Positions 1,183-22,368 are shown, counted from the first letter of the stretch. The stretch: DNA of 59,541 bases from a virus (IMGVR_UViG_3300032255_000002:1-59541), one strand, 5' to 3'. A program made the numbers and translations. The notes: generated from the sequence alone by a model not told the origin.

Positions 1183-1411
1183 GTAGCAAACTCTTCGAAT
1201 TCGATCTAGAAGATGGCTTGGTCTTAGCTATCCGTCCGACAGAGACTCCGAAAGGATCTCTTGATACGGCCATAAAACTCGAAGTCAAGAAAGTAGGTCC
1301 GTTAGCAACGGTCAATTGCGAGTGTGTTTTGAAAACTGAAGGCGGTACGGCAGTAGGTGTAGATATTTCCATAGCGAATTCCGAAGAAATGAAGGCAAAT
1401 CCCAATGAGTA
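1155..1411 (+). repeat. 31-bp perfect direct repeat CCGAAGAAATGAAGGCAAATCCCAATGAGTA at 1155-1185 and 1381-1411
   Basis: Direct sequence comparison. Confidence 0.95.
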
Positions 1412-1412
1412 A
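1179..1412 (+). CDS. Hypothetical protein lying between the direct repeats
   Basis: 77-aa ORF overlapping both neighbours. Confidence 0.6.
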   Translation: MSSKLFEFDLEDGLVLAIRPTETPKGSLDTAIKLEVKKVGPLATVNCECVLKTEGGTAVGVDISIANSEEMKANPNE

Positions 1413-2955
1413 CACAATCCCGAGACAATCCGAACTAAAAGGCGCGCTTCGACACGTTGCCGCAGAACTCGACACTCTTCTTTCAGAAGAAGAAAAGCAA
1501 CTCACGAAGTTTCAAGAGTTCGTAGACGCACTCGGAACCTTGTCGAAAGGCGAGCACCTTTACTTGCTCAAAGAACTTGCTGCGGATATGCGCAGCAAGA
1601 GTCTTGGAGACGTTGTAGACAACTTCGCGGATTTGCTTTCGCAGTACCAAGATTTACGCTTCGATCGCGTTCGCGAGCACAAAGTAGTTGGTATGCACAA
1701 CGATCCTGTTCCGGTTCCCGATCCCGACCCTGTTCCCGATCCCGACCCTGATCCCGATCCGGTTCCGCCTATCGTTACGATTCCTCCGGGACAACCTGCG
1801 TACATCGTCAAAGGACGTAGAGTCTTCAAAGGCTCGGAAGTCTTCTACACGGGAGGAAACGCGCTCGGCAAAGCAATCCAAGCTGCGAAAACGGGTCCCG
1901 GAAACTCGACTATCGCGATTGACGGATTCTGTGAATTCACGAAGACCTTTCCTTCTGAATTCTTCGCTTCGCACGTAGACATTGTTCCGTTCGAAGGCAA
2001 ACCCGCACGAATCCAGCGTCCGAGTTACAGCGGAGGCTACACGCTAACAGTTATGCCGGGAACGAACGGTGTTTCTCTCCATAACATCGGCATCGAACTT
2101 TGCCAATCGGGCGCGGGCGTTATGTGCGTCGAGCGTGGACCTAACGTTGCGCCGAACGACAGTTGGAACTTCTTCAACTGCTACAGCGTTGGACAGTTCG
2201 ACCATGCGACGGATTCAGGACCGCGAAGCAAGTGGATCTTCCTTCTAAACTTCGCGGCAAATTGGCAGATTATCGGAGGGCAATATCACGGATGCGAAGA
2301 AGAACACTTCTTGTACTCGCACAACTTGCTAGGAGATTTCTTAGTCAAGGATGTTACTTGCACGCGAATGGGGAGAACGTTTTGCCAGTTCGTTTCGAGG
2401 AACACGGAAGGTGTTTCAGGACTTCCGGCAGGACAAGGAACGATCACGGTTCAAGGGAACGTTATTGCGGATACCGGAATTTCCCTAAAAGACGCTCGAA
2501 GAGGCGGGAGCACGTTAACCGTTGCGGGTAGGCATCTTGGGGACGTTCACTTTATCGAGAACTACATTACGCAGGGTTTCGATCAAACGTACGCGGGAAT
2601 GGTTAAGTATCCGGGCCTTGCGCAAGCGATCAAAGCGCAAGCGAAAGAGGGAATCATCGGCAACGGTCTTGCTGCTATCTGGAAGTCAAACAAGGTTGCG
2701 GAACGAAACGAGTACGTTGAAATTTCGCGCAATATTCTTCACCAAAATAAAGCTGTTGCCGGAAGTGACGCTGTTTTAGTTCTCGACGGAACTAAAACCA
2801 TTGAGTGTAGAGGGAACAATATCCTCGCTGGAAAGAGCGGACAAGCCGCGCATTGGAACAGGCCGGGACAAGCTCCCGTAGACAAGTTTATTTGGGAAGA
2901 CAACGATACACACGGAGCGCCCGTCTATAAGAACGGCAAGGTTTGGCAAAAATGA
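1405..2955 (+). CDS. Right-handed beta-helix (pectin lyase-like) protein with a helical N-terminus and PD-rich linker
   Basis: Repeating I.xN.I / V.GN.I strand pattern; DPVPVPDPDPVPDPDPDPDP linker. Confidence 0.6.
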   Translation: MSNTIPRQSELKGALRHVAAELDTLLSEEEKQLTKFQEFVDALGTLSKGEHLYLLKELAADMRSKSLGDVVDNFADLLSQYQDLRFDRVREHKVVGMHNDPVPVPDPDPVPDPDPDPDPVPPIVTIPPGQPAYIVKGRRVFKGSEVFYTGGNALGKAIQAAKTGPGNSTIAIDGFCEFTKTFPSEFFASHVDIVPFEGKPARIQRPSYSGGYTLTVMPGTNGVSLHNIGIELCQSGAGVMCVERGPNVAPNDSWNFFNCYSVGQFDHATDSGPRSKWIFLLNFAANWQIIGGQYHGCEEEHFLYSHNLLGDFLVKDVTCTRMGRTFCQFVSRNTEGVSGLPAGQGTITVQGNVIADTGISLKDARRGGSTLTVAGRHLGDVHFIENYITQGFDQTYAGMVKYPGLAQAIKAQAKEGIIGNGLAAIWKSNKVAERNEYVEISRNILHQNKAVAGSDAVLVLDGTKTIECRGNNILAGKSGQAAHWNRPGQAPVDKFIWEDNDTHGAPVYKNGKVWQK

Positions 2956-4256: not shown

Positions 4257-5824
4257 GTTTAGAAGTAACACCCGGGAGCACACTCCCGAAACGAACAGAG
4301 GGAACGCTAACTAGCAAAGAAGCAGACCGTGTAGACGTTCTCTCCGCAGCGTATCAACATATGGCGAAGCGTTGGCCCCTGCTGGACATGCTCCGCAAAG
4401 GAGGAACGCAAGAGTTGCGCAACGAATCGCAGCAATGGCTTCCTAGAATGGACATGGAGACGCAGCAAGCGTACACCGACCGTGTTTCGCGATCCTATCT
4501 GTTTATGGCTTACGACAGCGCGATCGCAACAGCGGTTGCGCAACCCTTCAGTAAAGCAGTCACAGTAAAAGGAAACTTGTCGGAACGTCTTGCACCGATT
4601 GAGAAAGACGCGGACAGACAAGGAACAACGCTTTCTAAGTTTGCAGAGAACCTATACGAAGATGCCGTAGATCGAGGGATTACGCACCTTCTTGTTGATT
4701 TCCCGGAGTTTGGACGCGAACTGAACTTACGGCAGGAGCTAGAGAACGAAGTACGTCCGTACTTTACGCATCTTCCTGCCGCAAACTTAATCGGATGGAC
4801 GTATCGCGAGGCTATTAACGGAGGCTTGGAAATAACGAGCGTCCGTATTCTCGAAGAGCGAGAAGAGGCAAAAGGAAAGTACGGCAGAGTTCCCGCAGAT
4901 TACATTCGCGTAGTTACGTTCGTGTACGAATCGGACATAGAACGAGCGAAGGCTCTAGGAGTGGATGTTCCGAAAGGAACGATGCAACTTCACAAGAGAG
5001 CAGCAGGAGAAGAGGAGTTTCTCCCAGAAGAAGAGGAGCGCACACACGACTTCGTAGGCTGCAACCTAGTTACGCTTTACACGAACCAAGTAGGCTTACT
5101 TGTCGGAGAACCTCCGTTGTGGAAACTTGCAGAACTGAACCTGAAACACGCGCAATGTGACTCAGATCACCAAAACATTCTGCACTATACTTCTATTCCG
5201 ATGTTGTTCGCGGCAGGATTCGAGGAAGAGCAAGTAGACGAAGGAGTAGAGATCGGGCCGCGTAGAATGATCTCTACAACGAACCCACAAGCGAAAGTTT
5301 CGTATGTTGAGCACAACGGAACAGCGATAAGCAGCGGAACGAAGAACATCGACAAGATTGAGATGCAAATGGTCTCTCTCGGAATGGAGCCGTTCGTCGA
5401 AAAGGTTGCCAAGCAAACCGCGAAGGGTCAAGAGATCGACTCTCAGAAAACAACTTCGGATGCAAAGCGTTGGGTGCGAGCTACGGAAGGTGCGCTTCTT
5501 TCCGCTCTGAAGATCGCCGCGAAATGGGTAGAGGAAGAACTAGACGAAGACGTAAAGGTAGAAATCTACGATGATTTCGGCGCGTTGAGCCGTGCAGCCG
5601 AGGAAGTTAAAGACCTGAACTTTGCGCGTAAGAACAAGGATATCGACCAAGAAACGTACCTTGCGGAACTCAAGAAGAGGCAACGCATTTCGGAAGATGC
5701 GGATATAGATGCGATCATTGCAAAAACGGAGAGTGAGAAAGAGAACTCTGCTTCTGAAATGAATGCTCTTCTTGGTATTGGCGACGAAGACGAAGAAGAG
5801 ACCGAGACCGAAGACGAAGACTAG
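4253..5824 (+). CDS. Portal protein (DUF4055-like)
   Basis: WLP..ETQQAY..R..RS, HLLVDFP, RPYF..LIGW and PPL.LA.LN..H.Q..SD motifs; precedes MuF. Confidence 0.9.
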   Translation: MSLEVTPGSTLPKRTEGTLTSKEADRVDVLSAAYQHMAKRWPLLDMLRKGGTQELRNESQQWLPRMDMETQQAYTDRVSRSYLFMAYDSAIATAVAQPFSKAVTVKGNLSERLAPIEKDADRQGTTLSKFAENLYEDAVDRGITHLLVDFPEFGRELNLRQELENEVRPYFTHLPAANLIGWTYREAINGGLEITSVRILEEREEAKGKYGRVPADYIRVVTFVYESDIERAKALGVDVPKGTMQLHKRAAGEEEFLPEEEERTHDFVGCNLVTLYTNQVGLLVGEPPLWKLAELNLKHAQCDSDHQNILHYTSIPMLFAAGFEEEQVDEGVEIGPRRMISTTNPQAKVSYVEHNGTAISSGTKNIDKIEMQMVSLGMEPFVEKVAKQTAKGQEIDSQKTTSDAKRWVRATEGALLSALKIAAKWVEEELDEDVKVEIYDDFGALSRAAEEVKDLNFARKNKDIDQETYLAELKKRQRISEDADIDAIIAKTESEKENSASEMNALLGIGDEDEEETETEDED

Positions 5825-8811: not shown

Positions 8812-10038
8812 GTGGCAAACACACTCACTAGTATTCTACCCAAAATCCTTGCGCGGGGACTCGGGACGCTTCGAGAGAAAGCGATTATGCCTCGCGTTGT
8901 CAACGGCTCCTATTCAACGGAAGCCAAAGAATTCGGAAACACGATTGATATCCCGGTGCCGACTGCGGTTTCGACGATTGACGTTACTCCGAGTAATACT
9001 CCTCCTGCTTCCTCGGGTTCGACTCCGGGACTTGTTCAGCTTCAGTTGAACAAGTGGAAGCAAAACGATCCGATCCATCTTACGGATAACGAGCTTACGC
9101 AGATTGACAAGAACAAGCACTTCTTGCCTATGCAAATGAGCGAAGCTCTCAAGAGTCTTGCGAATGATGTGAACGTAGATATTCACAACAACTACCGCAA
9201 CCTGTCGAACGGCGTTTTCGGCGCAACCGGAACTGCCGGAACTACTCCGTTTGCTACTACGGTTGCCGCAGCTACTCAAGGTCGAAAGCTCTTGAGTCAA
9301 CAACTGGCACCGAAAACAGATCGGCGCGGTATTCTCGACTTCGACGCAGAGGCGAACGCACTTGAGCTTTCTCCCTTTGCCGATGCCGAGAAAACTATGT
9401 CTTCGATGGTGAAAATCGAAGGCGAAATCGGGCGAAAGTACGGTATTGACTGGATGAGCGACGATGCGGTTTTGACGCATACGGCGGGAACTCTGGACAA
9501 CGGCACCATTGCAGCCGCGAACGTCAACAACGGTGCGGGTTACGCAATCGGTGCTAGCTCTGTCAACATCGACGAAACTTCGCTCACGGGAACTATCGTT
9601 CTTGGAGACGTTATCTCTTTCGCTGGACATTCTCAAACGTACTGCGTGATTGAGAATACTTCGAGCGCGGAGTACAGCGGTGCGGGAGATGTGACCACGG
9701 GCGTTTATACCGCAGCGTCGAACGCTATTACTGGTTTGTCTTTCTACCCTGCTCTAGTAGCAGCGGTTGCGGACAATGAAGTTATGACCTTGACCGCAAC
9801 GCATGTTGTAAACATGGTTATGCACCGGGACGCTATGGCTTACGCTACTCGTCCCCTTGCCGTTGCTTCTACGGATCTGGAACTCGGTTCCAAAATCCAA
9901 TCTATGCAAGATCCCGTTACCGGATTGATCTTGCGACTTGAGGTTTCCCGTCAACATAAACAAGTTGTGTGGGAATTTGACATTCTGTGGGGCTCGAAAC
10001 TGGTTCGTCCGGAATTGGCCGCTCGGGTGCTTGGCTAA
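8812..10038 (+). CDS. Major capsid protein (P22 coat-like, with insertion domain)
   Basis: MANTL..., G.TI.IP.P, GEIGR.YG, NMVMHRDA, FDILWG....RPELA motifs. Confidence 0.92.
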   Translation: MANTLTSILPKILARGLGTLREKAIMPRVVNGSYSTEAKEFGNTIDIPVPTAVSTIDVTPSNTPPASSGSTPGLVQLQLNKWKQNDPIHLTDNELTQIDKNKHFLPMQMSEALKSLANDVNVDIHNNYRNLSNGVFGATGTAGTTPFATTVAAATQGRKLLSQQLAPKTDRRGILDFDAEANALELSPFADAEKTMSSMVKIEGEIGRKYGIDWMSDDAVLTHTAGTLDNGTIAAANVNNGAGYAIGASSVNIDETSLTGTIVLGDVISFAGHSQTYCVIENTSSAEYSGAGDVTTGVYTAASNAITGLSFYPALVAAVADNEVMTLTATHVVNMVMHRDAMAYATRPLAVASTDLELGSKIQSMQDPVTGLILRLEVSRQHKQVVWEFDILWGSKLVRPELAARVLG

Positions 10039-10119: not shown

Positions 10120-10413
10120 ATGCAGAAAGCAAATCAGTTCACTCCGCTCGATTCGAGACAACAACAAGAGTTTCTCAAGGCCGGAGGCCATAAAACGCAG
10201 AAGCACGATACGGTTACAGTAATTCGTAAGAAAGACGGCGCGAAGATGTGTATTGCCGGGAAAGATCTCGACAAGTACAGCGCTATTTACGGAGAGCTTG
10301 AACGTGTAAGTGAGAAAACTCACGAACCGATTGTAATTTCTGGAGGAGAAGACTCTCCAGAATCACAGACTCCGGAACAAGGTTCGCGAACTACGGGCTT
10401 TAAGCTCAAGTAG
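10120..10413 (+). CDS. Hypothetical protein after the capsid gene
   Basis: ORF with AAGGA upstream. Confidence 0.7.
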   Translation: MQKANQFTPLDSRQQQEFLKAGGHKTQKHDTVTVIRKKDGAKMCIAGKDLDKYSAIYGELERVSEKTHEPIVISGGEDSPESQTPEQGSRTTGFKLK

Positions 10414-10421
10414 GTTAGGAA

Positions 10422-10943
10422 ATGGCCGCAACATTCGTTGTAGAAACTGGTTCAGTAATTACGGGTGCAAACTCGTACGCTACAATTGCGCAAGCAGATC
10501 AGTACCACGAAAATTATGGAAACCCTTCCGCATGGTCTGCTCTTGCAGACGCGGACAAACAAGAAGCGTTGCGTAAAGCAACGCAATACTTGGATGCGCG
10601 ATACAAAGCGCGTTGGCAAGGGAGAAAAGTAAATTCGCTACAGCCTTTGTTGTGGCCGAGATCCTTCGTAGAGGATTCGGACGGAATCTATATTGCGGCA
10701 GACGAAATCCCCCAAGAACTTATCGACGCGGTTTCTATTCTCGCGCTAATAAGCTTAACAGACACTCTTAGACCCGACGTAGCAGCGAAAAATTCCGGTA
10801 TTTCGTCCGAGAGTAAAGGCGTCGGGCCGCTTAAAACATCCGTAACGTACATCGGGTCAAAGCCGACGTACAAAACATACACACTTGTACACGACTTGGT
10901 TCGTTCGTTTCTACACGCTCGCGGATCGGTAAGGAGAGCTTAA
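10422..10943 (+). CDS. Head-tail adaptor (often annotated as DnaT-like)
   Basis: VETG....ANSY, ALRKAT.YLD, Q.L.WPR and VGPL...Y motifs. Confidence 0.85.
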   Translation: MAATFVVETGSVITGANSYATIAQADQYHENYGNPSAWSALADADKQEALRKATQYLDARYKARWQGRKVNSLQPLLWPRSFVEDSDGIYIAADEIPQELIDAVSILALISLTDTLRPDVAAKNSGISSESKGVGPLKTSVTYIGSKPTYKTYTLVHDLVRSFLHARGSVRRA

Positions 10944-10947
10944 AGCT

Positions 10948-11349
10948 ATGGCTGGCATTACTAATTATCTTGGCAACGCGATTGCCGATCATGTATTCGG
11001 AAAAGCAACTTACACGGCACCGACGAATATTTACGTGGCTCTGTTCACAGTTACGCCTTCGGATACGGGAGGTGGAACAGAAGTAACAGGAGGTTCATAC
11101 GCTCGGGTTTCAACGGCTGCGGCTGATTGGAATGCCGCAACGTCTGCTGGGCTTATTGACAACCTGAACGCGATTACGTTTACAACCGCAACGGGTACTT
11201 GGGGAACTGTGGTAGCCGTTGGTTTGTTTGACGCATCTTCGGGCGGAAACCTTCTCGGCTGGAAAGACGGTCTTTCGCAGTCGGTTACTTCTGGCATTAC
11301 TGCCGAGTTCGCAGTGGGCGAGCTAGACGTAAACTTTAACGCAAACTAA
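10948..11349 (+). CDS. Small virion structural/fibre-associated protein
   Basis: NYL.NA..DHVFG..YTAPT.IYVALFT..P...GGGTEV.GG.YAR...A.G.WGTV pattern common in phage virion modules. Confidence 0.75.
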   Translation: MAGITNYLGNAIADHVFGKATYTAPTNIYVALFTVTPSDTGGGTEVTGGSYARVSTAAADWNAATSAGLIDNLNAITFTTATGTWGTVVAVGLFDASSGGNLLGWKDGLSQSVTSGITAEFAVGELDVNFNAN

Positions 11350-12632
11350 TGTTCTTCACAATCGCACTTCTCGCGCTCTTGCAAACACAAGAGAGTTCGC
11401 GTCCAGAAAAGCTAGAAGCTCTCGAACTCAAACCGAATATTCTAGAATTCTGCATGGATGATGTTGGATACGCGGATCTGGCTTCCGTTCCTACTCCGAA
11501 TATTGACGCTCTGATAGCAGTATCGTTCGACTTCCCGATTTCGTACGTAACTGCTCCTGTTTGCAGCGCGTCTAGGGCTTCGAGTTTAGCGGGGAGGTAC
11601 TCATCGGATTTCGATATTGGACATTTTGTAGGCCCCTTGAGTTCGACTAGTTTTCCTCCTGGAGTACAAACGAAAGCTACTCTTCTCAAGGGAGCGGGAT
11701 ACCAAACAGCGCACTTCGGTAAATGGCACTTGAATGTTCAAGATCCTCCCGCACCGGGAGTGGTTGGAGGATTCGATTGGTTCTCCGCAACAAGCTTGCA
11801 CAATCCAGCAATCATGTTAGTTGACGGAAGTGGGATGCTCGGAGATTACTTCACTTGGAATCGCGTAGACAACGGAATCGAGTTCGTCGACAGCTCTGGC
11901 TATATGACGGAGATCCAAGGAGACGAAGCCAAACTTTGGTGGAGTAATGCACAGGAGCCTAAGTTTGCGCAAATGTGGTTCATGGCTGCGCACAATCCGC
12001 AGCACATTCCGCCTGCGTACTTGCTACCGTTCGCATGGCCCGTCCCTACAACTGAACGGGAAAAATTCGAAGCGTCCATTATCGCAATGGATACGATGAT
12101 TGGGGAGATTCTCAGCGCTGTAGATTTGAATACAACTTACGTCTTCTTGTGGAGCGACAACGGCACTCCTCCTACGGTTGTTCTTCCTGGACAGGACCCC
12201 GCGAACTTCAAATTCTCAATGAAAGAAGGGGGAATCAACACTCCTTTTTACATTCACGCTCCAGGACAAAAGAGCGCAGCAATTAAGAGACGGATGATTA
12301 GCTCCGTGGATTTCTTGGAGACATACGCGGATATCGCGAACGTCTCTTCTACGGCAAACGACGGAGTTTCGTTCGCTAATCAACTAGGTGTGCAGACCGC
12401 TCCTTTTCAAATTCGCGATTGGATCTACGCGGTAAAGTTCAAGCCTAACGGGGCAGGACCGTACACAGTACGAGAGAGGATGTTGCGTACACTTGACGGA
12501 TTCAAATACATAAGAAAAGAAAAATCCGGGCAAGCTACGCAACATCTTCTCTACCTCCTCCCGGATGAAGACAACGAGATAACGAATGCTGCGAAACTTT
12601 CGGAGCTATCTGCAATTGTAGACACGCTGTAA
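11349..12632 (+). CDS. Formylglycine-dependent (S1) sulfatase
   Basis: PNIL...DD.G, TPNIDAL, CSASRASSLAGR (CxxxR), GYQT..FGKWHL, H.P.H, SDNG, K.S..EGG. Confidence 0.88.
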   Translation: MFFTIALLALLQTQESSRPEKLEALELKPNILEFCMDDVGYADLASVPTPNIDALIAVSFDFPISYVTAPVCSASRASSLAGRYSSDFDIGHFVGPLSSTSFPPGVQTKATLLKGAGYQTAHFGKWHLNVQDPPAPGVVGGFDWFSATSLHNPAIMLVDGSGMLGDYFTWNRVDNGIEFVDSSGYMTEIQGDEAKLWWSNAQEPKFAQMWFMAAHNPQHIPPAYLLPFAWPVPTTEREKFEASIIAMDTMIGEILSAVDLNTTYVFLWSDNGTPPTVVLPGQDPANFKFSMKEGGINTPFYIHAPGQKSAAIKRRMISSVDFLETYADIANVSSTANDGVSFANQLGVQTAPFQIRDWIYAVKFKPNGAGPYTVRERMLRTLDGFKYIRKEKSGQATQHLLYLLPDEDNEITNAAKLSELSAIVDTL

Positions 12633-12633
12633 T

Positions 12634-15600
12634 ATGGCCGTAGAAACTATCATCGAAAGCATCGGAGCGAGTAAGGACTACGCTACGGTTTCCGCTTGGA
12701 AGGTCGCGCATGATGGCGAAGACCTTACAACCGGAGGTGCAGACGGTGACGGTATCATTTACATCGGAGAACTCTACGACTCGATAGTAAGTACCGCACT
12801 TCTTTATCTAAATGAAGTAGGAGCGGGAACGGTAACGAGTGCTACTCAATACCGGTGGTTACGAGCCGCTTCCGGAGCGTACTACGATCCGACAGACGGG
12901 ACAGGAGCGAAGCTTCGGAATACGGGCGGCTCCGGTGTGATTCGCGTACGTGAGGCGCACTTCCGAATAGGTCCAGGGATCGCGCTGCATATGGATCAGA
13001 ACGTCTCCACTACTCTAAGAGTTGTTCGTTTTGATCGGGCATCCTGGATGAACGGGGTTTTCTTGGAGCATTCCCAAGGAAGCAATGCAAGCAACGCGAT
13101 TGTGTTTACTTCGAGCGGCATTCCTTCCGGGCAGACGGTTCAGATTTCAAGTTGTCTTTTGAAAGGTTCGAACAATCGCACAACGGCTGCGATTGGTCCC
13201 CGTTACGGGTTCGACCTAGATGCGACTACGGGAGGTAGTGCCGGAGATGTAGAGGTGTTTAACTGCACGGTCTACGGCATTTCACAGAACAACGAAACGC
13301 CTATCTTTGTTCCGCCTCAAGGCGTCGGAATGGTGACAGGCGGAAACACAACAGCGCACAACAACATCATAGTTATTTCGCAAGTGTCGGACTACGACCT
13401 AACTGCAACACCTTCAGCGTTCACGTACAATCTTTCCTCTGATGCTACGGCAACGGGAACAGGTTCTCTGATAAATAAGCTTTGGTCCGACGTTTTAGAA
13501 GACGCGGTAAACGGAGATTTCTCTTTGGCTTTGGGTTCTCCAGCTATCGACGCTGGAACAGACCTTAGCGGATCTTGGTATGAAGGAACTCCAGAAGACT
13601 TTCTAGAGGTCGAGCACGACAACGATGGTCTTGGTTGGGAAATGGGCGCGTTCAATTACGATACGATCGCACCGATCTCTGCTGAGATTTCTGGAGAATC
13701 GTCTCTGTCTTCTACTATGGCGCGGTTCTACAGAGCTTCGGCAACTCTGAACCAAGAGAGCACGATAGACGCGAACGCGGATTTCTATTACTACGCTCAA
13801 GCTGCGATAGACGCGGAAACTTCTTTTCTCGCCGTTCTCTCCGCAGAGACGCAACTATCTGCGGAGATTTCAGCAGAGAGCGAGATAATCATAACGCTCG
13901 ACACGCTCGCTCGCTTGGGCGCGCTTATAGAAGCAAGCGGTTCGCTCTCCTCTGTTCTTTCTCTGTTGGCGCGTCTTTCGGCTAGCGTGGACGCGCAGAA
14001 GACTCTTTCGGTTACTCTTCGTGCGATGTGGCAAGCACAAGCGCTCATAGAAGCGTACGAAGAGATCGAAGCTACTTTAACGATCACAGGAAACGCAGGA
14101 TTCTCTGCTTCGATAGACGCGCATACAGAGCTTCTCGCAACGCTCACTACTTGTGCAAATCGTATTCTTACGAGCACCGATCTTGATGTAGACTTGATCC
14201 CGGAAACTCTTGCTCTTCTGCAAGATCTTGGAAAGCAAGTTACGTTTTTTGAAGAGTTTGCGGGAGGAATATACGCTCCGGAAGTAGGGGAGTATTCTCC
14301 TCCGAGACCCGCTCCTACGGAACACGTTGTTGATTGCTCTCCTCCGTTGACGTTCGAACTTCGCTTTGCAGGAGGTCTCGCGTTTGAGCGCTCGAACCTT
14401 AAATTAGGAGACGTTCGCCTAATCGCAGCCGCCTCCGGAGTATCCTTCACCCCGGTCGAAGGAATGAAGGTTACGTTTGATAGTTCGACTTGGTATATCG
14501 AGAAGATAGGCAAGATCTACACAGGAGAGCTTATCGGCGCGTACGATCTTTTACTCCGGGGAGGAGAAGCTCCGACACCCGGAGTAAATACTTCAGAGCT
14601 AGACGGAGACTTGACAGAAGCAGCGCTCGAACTCGTCGAAGAGAGCGGAAAATCCGTAACGTTCGTTGTCCCTGGAGCGGATGTTTACAACCCGGCTACG
14701 GGAGATGTTACGGAAGGGACGGAGACTGAAATCTCCGTGGATGTATCTCCTCCGGAGAATTATCGCGATACGTTCTCGGGTGCGAATACTCGCGTGTTTA
14801 TGCCCGCATTGAACGCAGCGCTCCAACCGTTCAGAGGCCAAACAGTTCACGTAGATAAGAAGCTATCGGCTCCGATTGACGCAGATACGTTATTCGGTAT
14901 CGTGAACTCCGGAGAATCTATCAACAAGATAACCGCGATTACATCCTCTGTGGCGGAAGAGTGGGATTGCGTTTTGTACGTACGAAAGAAATTCGCGGAT
15001 AGCACAGATCGTTTGTACTTACGCCCGTCTCTGAGAGATGTAGGCGAAGTTGTAACAGAACGCTTCCAAGCTATTTTCGATGAGTACGCAGGAACGATTT
15101 CGGGAGTGGCTACGTTCAATGGAGGTCCGTATTCGAGTTCGAACGTTCTTGTTGAAAACGTCAACTCCGAATGGTGGAAGCTAACGCTAACACTCACGGA
15201 TAATGCAGGGGACGCAGTTTCACAGAGATGGTACGTGTTTCCGTGGTCTTCTTCAGGAGTTAGAACAACCGTAGTTGCTAACACTCTTTGGGGAGCAGGA
15301 GTGCAGAACGGATTGGGCGCAGAGTTCTTCGCGGATCCGAACGATTTCTCTTTGTGGTCTCCAAGCGCAGGAGCAACTGTAACTGTGAATACGTACTCTT
15401 CTCCGGGAACACAAGTAGAAACTCCGTGTGTGTTCTCGGTTGTGGACGTGAAGTATTTGTATTCCGGGGAGCAGATCGCTTTGTACGAGCTTGCGCTTTC
15501 GGGAAACGATATTCCAACCGTGTTTTCTTCTACGTTTACCGACTTGGATACGGACTTTCTTGCGGAGTCGCTGGACCTAACAAACGAACTTGGCAAGGAA

Positions 15601-15900
15601 GTGCAGTTCTTCTTGCGAGATGAAACGTTCAGCCCTTCGACGGGTAACGCGGTTCTAAACTACACGCGGACGAAGACGCATCATTGCACCCCTCCTCAAG
15701 AGTACGCAGAGAAATTCATTGATGGAGAGGTAATCAAAGAAGGAGACGCGAGGATTTTTCTTCCAGCGATTGAGTTGGAGTTTACCCCGCACAAAGGACA
15801 ACGAACTCTTATTGATTGCGAAGTGTGGACGGTGGAAGAGATCGGACTTGTTTACTCGGGCGAACAAATCGCAATGTACAGCCTTCAAATCCGTCGGTAA
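12634..15900 (+). CDS. Neck protein: beta-helix, 20-aa repeat stalk and three tandem head-closure-like domains
   Basis: Internal triplication DLD.DL...L....GK.V.F...Y.P..G...PP..Y/F...Y.GE.I..Y.L; sits between adaptor and gp10-like gene. Confidence 0.75.
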   Translation: MAVETIIESIGASKDYATVSAWKVAHDGEDLTTGGADGDGIIYIGELYDSIVSTALLYLNEVGAGTVTSATQYRWLRAASGAYYDPTDGTGAKLRNTGGSGVIRVREAHFRIGPGIALHMDQNVSTTLRVVRFDRASWMNGVFLEHSQGSNASNAIVFTSSGIPSGQTVQISSCLLKGSNNRTTAAIGPRYGFDLDATTGGSAGDVEVFNCTVYGISQNNETPIFVPPQGVGMVTGGNTTAHNNIIVISQVSDYDLTATPSAFTYNLSSDATATGTGSLINKLWSDVLEDAVNGDFSLALGSPAIDAGTDLSGSWYEGTPEDFLEVEHDNDGLGWEMGAFNYDTIAPISAEISGESSLSSTMARFYRASATLNQESTIDANADFYYYAQAAIDAETSFLAVLSAETQLSAEISAESEIIITLDTLARLGALIEASGSLSSVLSLLARLSASVDAQKTLSVTLRAMWQAQALIEAYEEIEATLTITGNAGFSASIDAHTELLATLTTCANRILTSTDLDVDLIPETLALLQDLGKQVTFFEEFAGGIYAPEVGEYSPPRPAPTEHVVDCSPPLTFELRFAGGLAFERSNLKLGDVRLIAAASGVSFTPVEGMKVTFDSSTWYIEKIGKIYTGELIGAYDLLLRGGEAPTPGVNTSELDGDLTEAALELVEESGKSVTFVVPGADVYNPATGDVTEGTETEISVDVSPPENYRDTFSGANTRVFMPALNAALQPFRGQTVHVDKKLSAPIDADTLFGIVNSGESINKITAITSSVAEEWDCVLYVRKKFADSTDRLYLRPSLRDVGEVVTERFQAIFDEYAGTISGVATFNGGPYSSSNVLVENVNSEWWKLTLTLTDNAGDAVSQRWYVFPWSSSGVRTTVVANTLWGAGVQNGLGAEFFADPNDFSLWSPSAGATVTVNTYSSPGTQVETPCVFSVVDVKYLYSGEQIALYELALSGNDIPTVFSSTFTDLDTDFLAESLDLTNELGKEVQFFLRDETFSPSTGNAVLNYTRTKTHHCTPPQEYAEKFIDGEVIKEGDARIFLPAIELEFTPHKGQRTLIDCEVWTVEEIGLVYSGEQIAMYSLQIRR
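13675..14151 (+). repeat. About eight 20-aa (60-nt) coding repeats, xSAxIxAESxLxxxL
   Basis: Ala codons recur at exact 60-nt spacing: 13681, 13741, 13801, 13861, 13921, 13981, 14041. Confidence 0.8.
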
Positions 15901-16325
15901 TGGGAAGTAACGCAGAACAATTTGCGAGAGGTCTTGCACAGGAAGCCGCAAAGCTCCCTGTTACGGAACTGGTTCGTCTGCACAGGCGCATTGTTCTCGA
16001 AGCTTTGCGTTTGATTGTGGACAAGACTCCGGTACGTAGACCGCAGTTGAATGCGGACGGAAGCCCGAGAGCAAATCAAATTTTAGGTGGACGGGCGCGG
16101 GGCGGATGGCACGTAACGATAGGTTCTCCTGCTACGGAAGAAACAAGAACTGAAGACCACATCTCGCAAGCGCTTGACGCTCTTGCAACGTTGCAGCCCT
16201 ACACAACGGTTTATATTTCGAACAACGTTTTCTACATAATTTACTTGGAAGAAGGGTCTTCTTCGCAAGCTCCGCAAGGAATGGTTTCCGTGTCTGTAGA
16301 AGAACTGATAACGATATTTCCATGA
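15900..16325 (+). CDS. HK97 gp10-like tail completion protein
   Basis: TPV...GRARGGW.V, YISNNV.Y..YLE.G.S.QAP.GMV. Confidence 0.85.
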   Translation: MGSNAEQFARGLAQEAAKLPVTELVRLHRRIVLEALRLIVDKTPVRRPQLNADGSPRANQILGGRARGGWHVTIGSPATEETRTEDHISQALDALATLQPYTTVYISNNVFYIIYLEEGSSSQAPQGMVSVSVEELITIFP

Positions 16326-16729
16326 GTTTCGAAACACTACATAACGTGCATAGAGCGCGGTTCGATACGCAGGTAGCCGTTCCGAACGGGTATCTAGTTG
16401 TATACGATAATCGGACAATCGACGTTCCGGAAGATTCTCTTTGGCTGCAATGGTCTGTTATCGAAGGAGCAAGAACAAAAGTTCAGCAAGGAGAAGGAGC
16501 AGGAGGAACTTTTAGAACATCGGGTGTGTGCAAGGCTAATATCTTCATGCCCATAGAGAAGGGTGATAGGGAAGCGCTAGAAGCAGCAGACTTTATCAAA
16601 ACATCATTCCAGGCGGTTACCGATTCGGGCGTTGTGTACCGAGCACCTTATATCGGGTCTGGAAGACGAGAGGGCAAATGGTGGATTGTTACCGTTACTT
16701 GCCCGTGGTTCTTCGACGAAATTACTTAA
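16322..16729 (+). CDS. Tail terminator protein
   Basis: V.YDN, R.SG....IF.P...G, WW.V.V..P motifs; precedes tail tube. Confidence 0.75.
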   Translation: MSFETLHNVHRARFDTQVAVPNGYLVVYDNRTIDVPEDSLWLQWSVIEGARTKVQQGEGAGGTFRTSGVCKANIFMPIEKGDREALEAADFIKTSFQAVTDSGVVYRAPYIGSGRREGKWWIVTVTCPWFFDEIT

Positions 16730-16744
16730 GAGAAATAAAAAATT

Positions 16745-17914
16745 ATGGCTGCTGATGCTAATAGCGTAGCGCTTCGCTTTGTGGAGGAATCAACCTACGG
16801 TGAAACTCCTTCCGGCCCGCCTACACTTCAAACCCTTCGCTTTACGAGCGAATCCCTAAAAGAATCTACCGATAGCACGAAAAGTAACGAAATTCGTGCA
16901 GATCGAGCGACTTCGGATATTATCCGGACGGGTGTTCGAGCGGCAGGAGATATCAACGGAGAGATGAGTTACGGAACTTACGATACGTTGATTAAACATG
17001 CGTTCTTAGATTCTGCGTACTCGACGGTTATTGACGATACGGATACTACATACTCGATGGACGATACCGACAATTCAATTAACGATTCCGGAAACGGATT
17101 CGTTACGGATGGTTGGGCCGAGGGAATGTGGATGGAGATTCGAGGCTTCACGGGAACGGCTGCGAACAACGGGTACGCTCGTTGCGAAACTGTTGCAGCG
17201 GGCAAGATCATTCTGTCTCACCATACCGTAGTAACGGATGCTGCGGGAGAATCTGTAACCCTTAAAAATTCCGGGCACCTTACGGCAGGAACTACGCTCG
17301 GAAGTTCCGTCTTCGAAAAAGAGTTTACAGACCTTTCGAACACGTTCGCGACTTACAACGGGCTTTCTCCGAATGTTTGGGAACTCGCGATCTCTTCGAA
17401 CGGCATTCTTACTACGCGGTTCGGAATGATCGGCAAGCGTGAAGTGTCCGTAACTTCTACCATCGGAGACGGCTCTCCGACGGCTGCCACCACAACCTCC
17501 GTTATGAACGGAATTGATAACGTTGTCGGAATCTTCGAAGGAGGAACCTCTTTCGACCTTACTTCGTTTAACTTCACGCTCACGAACAACCTCCGAGAGC
17601 GTTTGAAAATCGGAACGCTCGGAGCGTTCGAACTCGGAAAAGGTTCGATTGACATTTCGGGAAGCTTTACCGCATACCTGTCGAGCAACACTCTTCCGGA
17701 TAAGCACTTGAATTGGACGGATACGAGCATTGCCGTTGTTATGGAAGACGCAGCGGGCAACGCTTACGCTTTGGATATTCCGAGCGTGAAAATCGTAGAC
17801 TCGGATCGTAATGCTACGGGTCTTAACACGGATGTTCTTTTGAATGCGACTTTTAACGGCAAGTTGCATCCTACCGAGCTTATTACTCTCGGTTGGTCTC
17901 GTTTCGCCGCATAA
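16745..17914 (+). CDS. Major tail tube protein
   Basis: EE.TYGETP, LRFTSESL, S.EIR.DR, F...NNL, ISGSFTAY. Confidence 0.88.
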   Translation: MAADANSVALRFVEESTYGETPSGPPTLQTLRFTSESLKESTDSTKSNEIRADRATSDIIRTGVRAAGDINGEMSYGTYDTLIKHAFLDSAYSTVIDDTDTTYSMDDTDNSINDSGNGFVTDGWAEGMWMEIRGFTGTAANNGYARCETVAAGKIILSHHTVVTDAAGESVTLKNSGHLTAGTTLGSSVFEKEFTDLSNTFATYNGLSPNVWELAISSNGILTTRFGMIGKREVSVTSTIGDGSPTAATTTSVMNGIDNVVGIFEGGTSFDLTSFNFTLTNNLRERLKIGTLGAFELGKGSIDISGSFTAYLSSNTLPDKHLNWTDTSIAVVMEDAAGNAYALDIPSVKIVDSDRNATGLNTDVLLNATFNGKLHPTELITLGWSRFAA

Positions 17915-21390: not shown

Positions 21391-22368
21391 ATGGGCTTTC
21401 ACGATATACAGTTTCCAACAGATATTTCTTACGGTTCAAGAGGAGGCCCGAGCTTTTCGACAAGCGTGGTTCGTCTGGATAGCGGAACTAGAGAAGCGGT
21501 TTCTAGATGGTCAACCCCTCTTTGGAAATTCGATGCTTCGTACGGAGTTCGAAGTCTCGACGATCTATATTCCGTGGTCGATTTCGCGGTTGCTCGCGAC
21601 GGTCCCGCAAATACGTTCCGCTATAAAGACCATCTTGATTTTAATACCTCCTCCAATGGGCGAGACGCGGTAGACAAAGAAGATGTTGAGATCGGAGTAG
21701 GAGACGGAACAGAGACGCAGTTTCAACTTCTAAAAAAGTACGGAGTAGGCACCGCTTTTGTACGTTCTCGGCCTATATCTCTGCCCGTTTCAGGAACTCT
21801 TGTTGTAGCGGTAGCAGGAGTTTTGCAAACCGAGACTACCGACTACACGGTAAATTATACAACGGGTGTTGTTACGTTTGGAACGGCTCCCCCTGCTTCG
21901 GATTCTGTTACGGCAGGATTCGAGTTTGACAATATGTGTCACTTTGGAGAAGAGATAGACGATTCCCTACAAGTTGCCATTACAGGTTACGAAGGGGGAG
22001 CTGTTTCTGCGCCTATTCCTATCTACGAAGTTCGTAATGAAGTGCAGGTAGAAGACGAGTTCTTTTACGGAGGGCACATAGATCACGGAGCCGTTGCAGC
22101 GGATGTGAATATGACCGTTACCCAAGGAAGGGCGCAAATGGTTTCTCCTTCTACTTCGGGACTTGCAATGATTCTTCCGGATGCTACTTCGCTTCCAACG
22201 GGAGGACCGTACTTCTATATCATCAATGATTCGGCATCTAACACAATGACATTAGAAGCGTATCCGGGAGGAGGGACGAACATTCTTACTCTGGGGACGC
22301 TAACGACTACGATTGTTCTTCTCTCGGCTACGTCCGGAGGTACGAAGTATTGGCATGCTTTCTCTTAA
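21391..22368 (+). CDS. Distal tail protein (DUF2460, GTA-like) with C-terminal extension
   Basis: FHDI.FP.DISYG..GGP.F.T, FRYKD..D, GDG....FQL.K.Y, AGFEFD. Confidence 0.88.
   Translation: MGFHDIQFPTDISYGSRGGPSFSTSVVRLDSGTREAVSRWSTPLWKFDASYGVRSLDDLYSVVDFAVARDGPANTFRYKDHLDFNTSSNGRDAVDKEDVEIGVGDGTETQFQLLKKYGVGTAFVRSRPISLPVSGTLVVAVAGVLQTETTDYTVNYTTGVVTFGTAPPASDSVTAGFEFDNMCHFGEEIDDSLQVAITGYEGGAVSAPIPIYEVRNEVQVEDEFFYGGHIDHGAVAADVNMTVTQGRAQMVSPSTSGLAMILPDATSLPTGGPYFYIINDSASNTMTLEAYPGGGTNILTLGTLTTTIVLLSATSGGTKYWHAFS

Follow-up and report, generated by a model that had tools for sequence, protein, structure and literature searches.

The head-closure (stopper) proteins of siphophages, which include lambda gpFII, PHROG 161 and the solved stoppers of T1, FCWL1, Chi, R4C, Bxb1 and a gene transfer agent, are single domains of about 100–125 amino acids (aa) that form hexamers. 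In this work, we analyzed a virus sequence of 59,541 nucleotides (IMGVR_UViG_3300032255_000002:1-59541), hereafter called the window, which is the whole stretch of DNA under study, and we focus on one gene in it (12634–15900, plus strand), whose product has 1088 aa. Each of three units in the C-terminal half of this product matches the same profile as the siphophage stoppers (Hc1), the third unit has the same fold, and the gene occupies the same slot, from the adaptor to Neck1/terminator, as in the contig L002 and in MW202657. In contrast to the described single-domain proteins, the chain contains three such domains, carries an extra 189-aa insert in the middle one, and bears a 510-aa N-terminal appendage. 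The product is almost certainly the head-closure protein of this phage. The finding would join two known kinds of structure, namely the stopper and the rope-and-whisker fiber. We propose, giving the complete picture about an even chance, that the sole stopper of the phage is built as a neck-fiber anchor, in which an Hc1 ring made of domains standing side by side carries a rope with whisker beads.

Structures of bead-on-rope fibers are to date available for two podophages, GP4 and A1002, and for myophages (Bas63) (PMC13730344; PMC12609058). A1002 has a nozzle-rope protein, gp39, which is associated with the fiber dimers gp40/gp41; 11 dimers occupy a fiber-dock domain of 226 to 268 residues. These dimers bind by beta-sheet augmentation, the distal end carries an immunoglobulin (Ig)-like cap, and a ring-forming platform is located at the C-terminus (PMC13730344). 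From these figures we calculate 20–24 aa of rope per dimer, which is near the 20-aa period found here. The protein gp39 has the same chain order as the protein encoded in the window, that is, a distal cap, a rope, and a C-terminal ring-forming domain, and its beads belong to the fold family of GP4 gp80. The anchors differ: A1002 is a short-tailed phage in which a nozzle fragment bears six ropes, while in the long-tailed phage studied here the anchor would be the stopper with its tandem ring domains. Moreover, A1002 has an Ig-like cap and two bead genes, whereas a beta-helix cap and one bead gene are proposed in the window.

In Bas63, the collar protein has a long rope domain at its N-terminus, around which whisker dimers homologous to GP4 Fiber-1 are wrapped ‘such as beads on a string’; this rope carries two whisker dimers (PMC12609058). 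The collar–whisker complex of Bas63 and Sf14 thus shares with our protein the neck location and the plan of a ring protein with whiskers on its N-terminal rope. In Bas63, however, the rope belongs to a separate 12-mer Ig-like collar outside the adaptor/head-completion interface, while here it would be part of the head-closure protein itself and have approximately eight repeats. The rope of GP4 is described in the same report as a separate protein (PMC12609058). GP4 Fiber-1 (gp80) belongs to the same bead family as a protein encoded close to the 1088-aa gene (PF23140; PDB 8JOU match), yet the free GP4 rope protein interlocks with the collar (GP4 as cited in PMC13730344 and PMC12609058), whereas the rope proposed here is fused to ring domains.

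The open reading frame (ORF) of the 1088-aa protein is open throughout. A hidden Markov model (HMM) of Hc1, built in this work from 97 single-domain relatives, yielded three envelopes in its product, and these coincide exactly with three homologous C-terminal units that a preliminary description of the window, made from the sequence alone, had delimited (Table 1). In pairwise BLASTP comparisons, unit 1 is 34% identical to unit 3 (E 1e-23) and 29% identical to unit 2 (E 3e-8), while units 2 and 3 share 27% identity (E 3e-12), with an additional match of the C-terminal strand (E 8e-5). The family PHROG 161, ‘head closure Hc1’, matches the whole protein with E 1.9e-17 and also each unit alone (Table 1). 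Additionally, a profile of the relatives matches a solved ‘Stopper protein gp12’ (E 1.2e-4). The identification of the units as head-closure domains, which the preliminary description had suggested, is borne out by sequence for all three of them and also by predicted fold for unit 3. A phmmer search with the whole 1088-aa protein against PDB sequences gave no match, and a word-based homologue search with aa 505–1088 among proteins of similar length returned only the protein itself.

The AlphaFold2 (AF2) model of the C-terminal half is uneven, with a mean predicted local distance difference test score (pLDDT) of 65.7 and a predicted template modeling score of 0.51. Unit 3 exceeds a pLDDT of 90 and the core of unit 2 reaches about 90, while unit 1 is modeled poorly (pLDDT below 50 for model residues 1–91) because of a messy alignment. 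In the model, unit 3 consists of an N-terminal helix and a beta-sandwich with a hairpin, which is the stopper fold. In VIA-align, all 14 top rows for unit 3 have Z values of 8.0–10.9 and are neck or stopper-like chains; 11 of them are named phage-neck or gene transfer agent chains, with 92–111 residues aligned, and the neighbors include FCWL1, Chi, R4C, Bxb1, and the gene transfer agent. Foldseek gives a probability of 1.00 for the matches of unit 3 to T1, Bxb1, FCWL1, lambda gpFII (8k37_M), R4C, and SaPI1; the E values of these matches, obtained with the model of the C-terminal half, are weak for so long a query (2e-3 to 4e-2). The comparison with stopper folds that had been recommended for each unit thus gave lambda gpFII and the gene transfer agent among the matches of unit 3. 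The confidently modeled core of unit 2 reached Z values of only 5–6 in VIA-align, with generic barrels.

Among the 851 six-frame ORFs of at least 40 aa in the contig, the Hc1 HMM detects no other Hc1 gene, the next best match having E 1.6, which agrees with the earlier remark that a separate head-closure gene is missing. A single-domain gene in the corresponding slot, for which related phages were to be searched, is present in MW202657, a distant relative whose capsid protein is 40% identical to that of the window; its head-tail attachment gene, located between the adaptor and neck genes, encodes 121 aa. Judged by sequence, the gene at 12634–15900 is therefore the sole detectable stopper gene of the contig.

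The segment directly N-terminal to the ring domains (aa 346–510) is periodic. Its autocorrelation peaks at lags of 20, 40, and 60, and its local period score is 1.15, compared with 0.09 ± 0.15 (maximum 0.64) for shuffled sequences; none of 500 shuffles scored as high, and in 19 other genes of the window the score reaches 0.39 at most. The approximately eight 20-aa repeats noticed in the preliminary description are thus real. That description regarded them as a stalk; the repeats stand, while the notion of a stalk gives way to that of a rope docking a gp80-like whisker protein, which better fits the gene context and the likeness to A1002 and Bas63. We consider it moderately probable, by analogy with those systems and from the gene neighborhood, in which a gp80-like gene occurs beside periodic ORFs, that aa 346–510 serve as a rope for dimers of a 133-aa gp80-like protein, together forming a two-protein bead-chain neck fiber.

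The 133-aa protein (10948–11349) matches the Pfam family PF23140, ‘Podophage GP4 fiber I protein gp80’, with E 2.2e-37 over 127 of 128 profile positions, and with E 1.2e-38 in the search of the window’s own record. Its residues 1–124 also match PDB chain 8jou_a (140 aa; 10 chains in the entry) with E 1.1e-4, and 8JOU is cited as the GP4 fiber in the A1002 paper (PMC13730344). The surroundings of such genes were surveyed in 45 viral loci with a gp80-like gene, where an ORF was called periodic if it had a 20- or 40-aa period with a score of at least 0.5. The next ORF downstream of the gp80-like gene is periodic in 28 of the 38 loci having such an ORF, the next one upstream in 1 of 44, and 49 of the 404 remaining ORFs of these loci are periodic. 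Many of the loci are near-duplicates; after grouping at 70% identity, 16 groups were obtained, in 6 of which the next downstream ORF is periodic, while in 4 further groups a strongly periodic ORF occurs at another place in the locus. In many viral loci, a small separate gene with a 20-aa period is located just after the bead gene, for example a free rope of seven repeats in L012, and in other gp80-like loci the rope lies within long fusions.

In L002, MW202657, and L028, the bead and rope genes are directly adjacent to each other, while the two genes are one gene apart in the window. L002 is an unrelated 58-kilobase (kb) contig with a high guanine–cytosine content and a different capsid family, in which the order is adaptor, PF23140 gene, a 1095-aa rope protein with three Hc1 domains, Neck1, terminator, and tube. 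In MW202657 (locus L001, 9820–11900), the gp80-like gene is followed by a gene for a 546-aa protein, in which an N-terminal domain and about six 20-aa repeats are combined with a tandem pair of tail-terminator domains (28% mutual identity, E 1e-8). This rope with tandem terminators is a parallel to the tandem stopper in another ring family. Both genes of MW202657 are annotated as hypothetical. In L028 (1–5045), a single-domain Hc1 gene and a gp80-like gene precede a gene whose 1050-aa product contains about 30 repeats, each of 20 aa, and has a single tail-terminator domain at its end (PHROG 179, E 7e-8). Behind it, at 4596–5045, lies another terminator-like gene, which is free. Since the fusion partner is Hc1 in L002 and a terminator in MW202657 and L028, the neck ring protein to which a rope is fused appears to vary from phage to phage. 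A search for longer, fused forms of the window’s own terminator found none, which is weak evidence.

A phmmer search with unit 3 against 1.8 billion representatives gave 566 proteins at E <= 1e-3, and Hc1 domains were counted, with the HMM of the 97 single-domain members, in the best 150 of them, which are centered on the subfamily of the window. One domain was found in 123 of these proteins, two in 23, and three in 4 (P0001, P0002, P0005, and P0006), and none of the 150 has four or more. The architecture that the preliminary description put forward as a candidate new one is consequently real and recurring, but it is not unique, as 27 of the 150 best relatives have tandem Hc1 domains. An N-terminal extension longer than 180 aa occurs in 15 of the 150, all of which have two or three domains, and none of the 123 single-domain proteins has an extension above 172 aa. 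In the stretch before the first domain of these 15 proteins, the best period is 19–23 or 40 aa in 12 and 14 aa in 2; the remaining one, P0106, has no period there. The linkers between units measure 10–17 aa between the ends of the HMM alignments. The closest relative among the 150 is P0007 (773 aa), which shares the beta-helix (37% identity) and the stalk and has two units only. P0007, P0001, P0151, and P0014 yielded no relatives in locus searches, and the gene context of tandem-Hc1 proteins comprises three cases, namely the window, L002, and L049. A tree of the units (123 columns, no support values) hints at several independent duplications, with sister units in P0012, P0059, P0002, and P0005.

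Two further observations were made by eye on the family. The last Hc1 units of P0005, P0006, P0015, and P0017 have a CxxC motif in the hairpin region and cluster together in the unit tree, which has no support values; the motif may be a metal or disulfide site. Seven single-domain proteins (P0013, P0016, P0036, P0046, P0069, P0088, and P0116) have an extra N-terminal domain of about 115 aa that appears Ig/FN3-like, which would mean six small decorations on the stopper ring.

On the basis of these data, we propose the following mechanism. Like lambda gpFII, the Hc1 domains would lie in the ring under the adaptor, where they would close off the filled head and receive the tail by its Neck1/terminator end. 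Two short strands provided by each 20-aa repeat would be added to the open sandwiches of one whisker dimer and complete them through beta-sheet augmentation, so that about eight whisker dimers would be strung on each chain, with the beta-helix capping the far end. The result would be a bead-chain fiber like those of A1002, GP4, and Bas63, anchored on a siphophage stopper. In the weakest step of this scheme, the three domains would stand side by side and two chains would close a six-membered ring in the manner of a bacterial sliding clamp, giving two fibers per virion; two-domain relatives would accordingly form trimers with three fibers.

Before the fiber and the ring are weighed, it should be stated that a mis-assembled or falsely fused gene, a possibility already raised in the preliminary description, is extremely improbable, even if the record is a metagenomic contig estimated by CheckV to be 89% complete. 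The units share 27–34% aa identity, and Tandem Repeats Finder found no DNA-level repeat common to the three of them. A 59,090-base contig from a second assembler (run X1, perhaps the source sample, so that the two assemblies possibly share their origin) covers positions 12600–16000 with 0 differences at a word depth of 37. In addition, the three-unit architecture recurs in the unrelated contig L002 and in the proteins P0002, P0005, and P0006. Run X2 contains two 151-base pieces of the gene only, which is too little for a second occurrence of the whole gene. With regard to the repeats, they might instead form a self-sufficient shaft, for example an oligomeric beta-structure, with the gp80-like protein being an unrelated head or decoration protein. 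This is quite unlikely in our assessment, although it agrees with the label of PHROG 240 for the 133-aa protein, which is merely ‘head protein’, with the folding of the repeats alone into beta-hairpins by AF2 at low confidence (two short strands per repeat), with the sulfatase gene that separates the whisker and rope genes in the window, and with the 6 of 16 gp80-like groups that show no periodic neighbor at the threshold used. In contrast, a rope-Hc1 gene in L002, and a rope-terminator gene in MW202657 and L028, comes immediately after the gp80-like gene, the ORFs that follow gp80-like genes are strongly enriched in periodic ones, and both the repeat length and the cap–rope–ring order correspond to the per-dimer spacing and domain order of A1002 (PMC13730344). 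The rope remains the preferred reading of the repeats, but the sulfatase gene and the groups lacking a periodic neighbor count against it, as do further observations. A phmmer search of aa 346–510 against PDB sequences produced weak matches to MurA only (E at least 0.015), and AF2 confidence is low over the rope. P0106 (L049, 8001–11120; 1040 aa) has two partial tandem Hc1 domains and a 784-aa extension that lacks the 20-aa period, and there is no gp80-like gene within 8 kb of it in L049.

Ring proteins can be made of fused protomers. PCNA is a trimer of two-domain chains, the bacterial beta clamp is a dimer of three-domain chains, and the tube protein pb6 of phage T5 forms a ring from fused protomers. 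Applied to the six-fold ring considered here, one domain per chain would mean six chains, two domains three chains, and three domains two chains, which is an analogy without homology. We assign slightly less than an even chance to the pseudo-hexamer of two three-domain chains envisaged in the preliminary description; it fits the occurrence of copy numbers 1, 2, and 3 only, the short linkers, and the association of long appendages with tandem domains. A neck of six chains, in which one Hc1 unit per chain, probably unit 3, would enter the hexamer and the others would form stacked rings, making the neck longer, or an outer collar, with six ropes in total, is rather unlikely. Unit 3 is indeed the most canonical unit of this protein (128 bits vs 92 and 74), and the rope on a single terminator domain in L028, with its free second terminator gene, could mean two rings. 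The terminal unit is, however, not consistently the most canonical one among tandem proteins: a non-terminal unit is nearer to the single-domain consensus in several of them (138/113/72 bits in P0006 and 137/101 bits in P0007), and the terminal unit is the least canonical in P0006, P0015, and P0017. None of the 123 single-domain proteins has lost the hairpin, whereas 9 tandem proteins have lost it in a total of 10 units, which may be first or last ones. As the affected unit is terminal in 3 of these proteins and non-terminal in 6, nothing singles out the terminal unit. Judged by segment length, every complete unit has retained the whole N-terminal helix; the only two short values are at the N-terminal end of cut-off proteins. 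To our knowledge, single-domain Hc1 rings do not stack on themselves, and no protein with four or more units is present among the best 150 relatives, even if three-unit cases are few. In lambda, the N-terminal helix of the stopper cradles the adaptor. The N-terminus of gpFII lies at the top of the ring and its C-terminal loop at the bottom (PMC10721106). A linker of 10–17 aa would therefore easily span stacked rings as well, giving six chains and six fibers. Furthermore, A1002 has six ropes on a hexamer and the Bas63 collar has 12 ropes (PMC13730344; PMC12609058).

The two-chain ring is also weakened by other points. P0007 carries the same beta-helix and stalk on two Hc1 units, so the fiber does not depend on three units; the rope of L028 sits on a single terminator domain; and the domain counts come from a subfamily-centered 150 of 566 relatives. 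A complex prediction with two copies of the three-unit region of P0006 (aa 255–641) scored 0.00 and weighs neither for nor against the pseudo-hexamer. The rope-docking and two-chain-ring steps rest on analogy and gene neighborhood. Only tentatively, and with the balance leaning against it, do we extend the sliding-clamp comparison to a rule, by which chains of one, two, and three domains would form hexamers, trimers, and dimers, and the fusion of ring domains would set the number of bulky neck fibers at six, three, or two. Such a rule would recur in the terminator ring of MW202657, and the rope would be a mobile cassette moving among stopper, terminator, collar, and nozzle.

The N-terminal region (aa 1–345) was characterized in the preliminary description as beta-helix-like, and this is supported at the level of fold class by AF2, Foldseek, and the ESM Atlas. 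In the AF2 model, aa 1–280 have a pLDDT of about 75, with short strands throughout. The Foldseek rows for the model of aa 1–345 are almost all beta-helix proteins (lyases, tailspikes, esterases, and autotransporter adhesins), including PL6 alginate lyases, the CBA120 tailspike, and pectin methylesterases, and these matches are weak (E at least 1.6e-3; TM 0.1–0.4). The ESM Atlas places the region with NosD/Beta_helix clusters at 0.94, the homologue P0154 carries PF13229, and a match to choice_anch_Q is weak (E 0.023). The prediction thus supports a right-handed beta-helix as a fold class, without an assignable enzyme family. A Pfam search of the beta-helix region and of the unit 2 insert gave no match, and the 189-aa insert (aa 744–932) likewise has no PHROG match. 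The neighbors of the insert with a named family in the ESM Atlas, CBM_4_9 (0.86) and Laminin_G_3 (0.79), are leads only; the insert may be a jelly roll that binds carbohydrate and is exposed on the ring of the neck.

The sulfatase encoded just upstream has an intact CSASR motif, a GKWH motif, and a hydrophobic N-terminus in its translation. Sulfatase-like matches are rare in phage records (22 of 50,697), and several of these are bacterial contigs. The run records label the source as a microbial mat metagenome, and microbial mats are rich in sulfated exopolysaccharide. We infer that the fiber is a device for adhesion or matrix penetration, bearing the beta-helix on its distal end and, at the neck, an insert that is possibly lectin-like. 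Its likely role is reversible binding to, or cutting of, surface or matrix polysaccharide, and the combination of the beta-helix, the possible lectin-like insert, the neighboring sulfatase, and the mat source suggests that sulfated polysaccharide of the matrix is bound or digested.

The window comprises an entire IMG/VR virus record, and its structural gene set, assigned by PHROG and Pfam matches, is typical of siphophages. The portal, head morphogenesis, scaffold, and major capsid (8812–10038) genes and a 97-aa ORF without assignment are followed by the genes for Ad1, the gp80-like protein, the sulfatase, the 1088-aa protein, Neck1/tail completion, the terminator, the tube, a chaperone, and the tape measure. 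From 10948 to 16729 the genes are tightly packed, abutting or overlapping by a few bases. The 1088-aa gene had been placed between the adaptor and the gp10/terminator genes; it does lie in that slot, but not directly after the adaptor, because the gp80-like and sulfatase genes intervene. The coordinates are collected in Table 1.

Table 1. Coordinates of the stopper gene, its parts, and the neighboring genes in the window.
Feature	Coordinates	Strand	Evidence or remark
Head-tail adaptor Ad1, ring above the stopper	10422–10943	+	PHROG 477 E 4e-47; Pfam PF20557 E 4e-37
Whisker/Fiber-1 subunit (GP4 gp80 family), 133 aa, proposed neck-fiber bead	10948–11349	+	PF23140
Sulfatase, 427 aa, between whisker gene and rope gene	11349–12632	+	Pfam PF00884 E 2.4e-28
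Whole gene, 1088 aa: predicted beta-helix, proposed rope, three Hc1 domains	12634–15900	+	Open ORF, PHROG 161, HMM
Predicted right-handed beta-helix, aa 1–345, proposed distal fiber cap	12634–13668	+	AF2, Foldseek, ESM Atlas
About eight 20-aa repeats, aa 346–510, proposed rope (whisker-dimer docking track)	13669–14163	+	Period 20/40/60
Hc1 unit 1, aa 513–643	14170–14562	+	92 bits vs own HMM; PHROG 161 E 1e-4
Hc1 unit 2, aa 652–957, split by insert	14587–15504	+	HMM aa 654–743 (56 bits) and aa 933–955 (18 bits); PHROG 161 E 0.0097 (N-terminal part only)
189-aa insert in unit 2, aa 744–932, possible lectin-like jelly roll	14863–15429	+	Between HMM positions 98 and 99
Hc1 unit 3, aa 967–1088, most canonical unit of the protein	15532–15897	+	128 bits; PHROG 161 E 3e-7
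Neck1/tail completion protein	15897–16325	+	PHROG 169 E 2e-27; ATG overlaps the stop codon of the fiber gene
Tail terminator	16322–16729	+	PHROG 179 E 2e-17; Pfam PF13554
Tube	16745–17914		

Among the other genes of the window, a 325-aa protein encoded just after the tape measure gene (21391–22368, plus strand) matches PHROG 2913, ‘glycoside hydrolase’ (E 1e-55), and may be a second virion protein acting on glycans. The 97-aa ORF that separates the capsid gene from the adaptor gene (10120–10413, plus strand) has no PHROG, Pfam, or NCBIfam match, and a 516-aa ORF upstream of the portal gene (1405–2955, plus strand) has no PHROG match.

In the full-text literature, in which most subscription journals fall outside the scope of the search, we found no description of tandem or fused head-closure proteins and none of a rope-and-whisker fiber on a siphophage. 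Stoppers have been treated as small single-domain subunits of a hexamer, and a family in which two or three domains are fused would demonstrate that six-fold symmetry can be given up in this ring. A core genome-gating protein would then double as a fiber anchor. That beads of the same kind and a fitting rope occur with a siphophage stopper, and with the terminators of relatives, suggests a widespread modular adhesion device, which could be recognized during annotation by the signature of a PF23140 gene beside a 20-aa-periodic segment fused to a ring domain.

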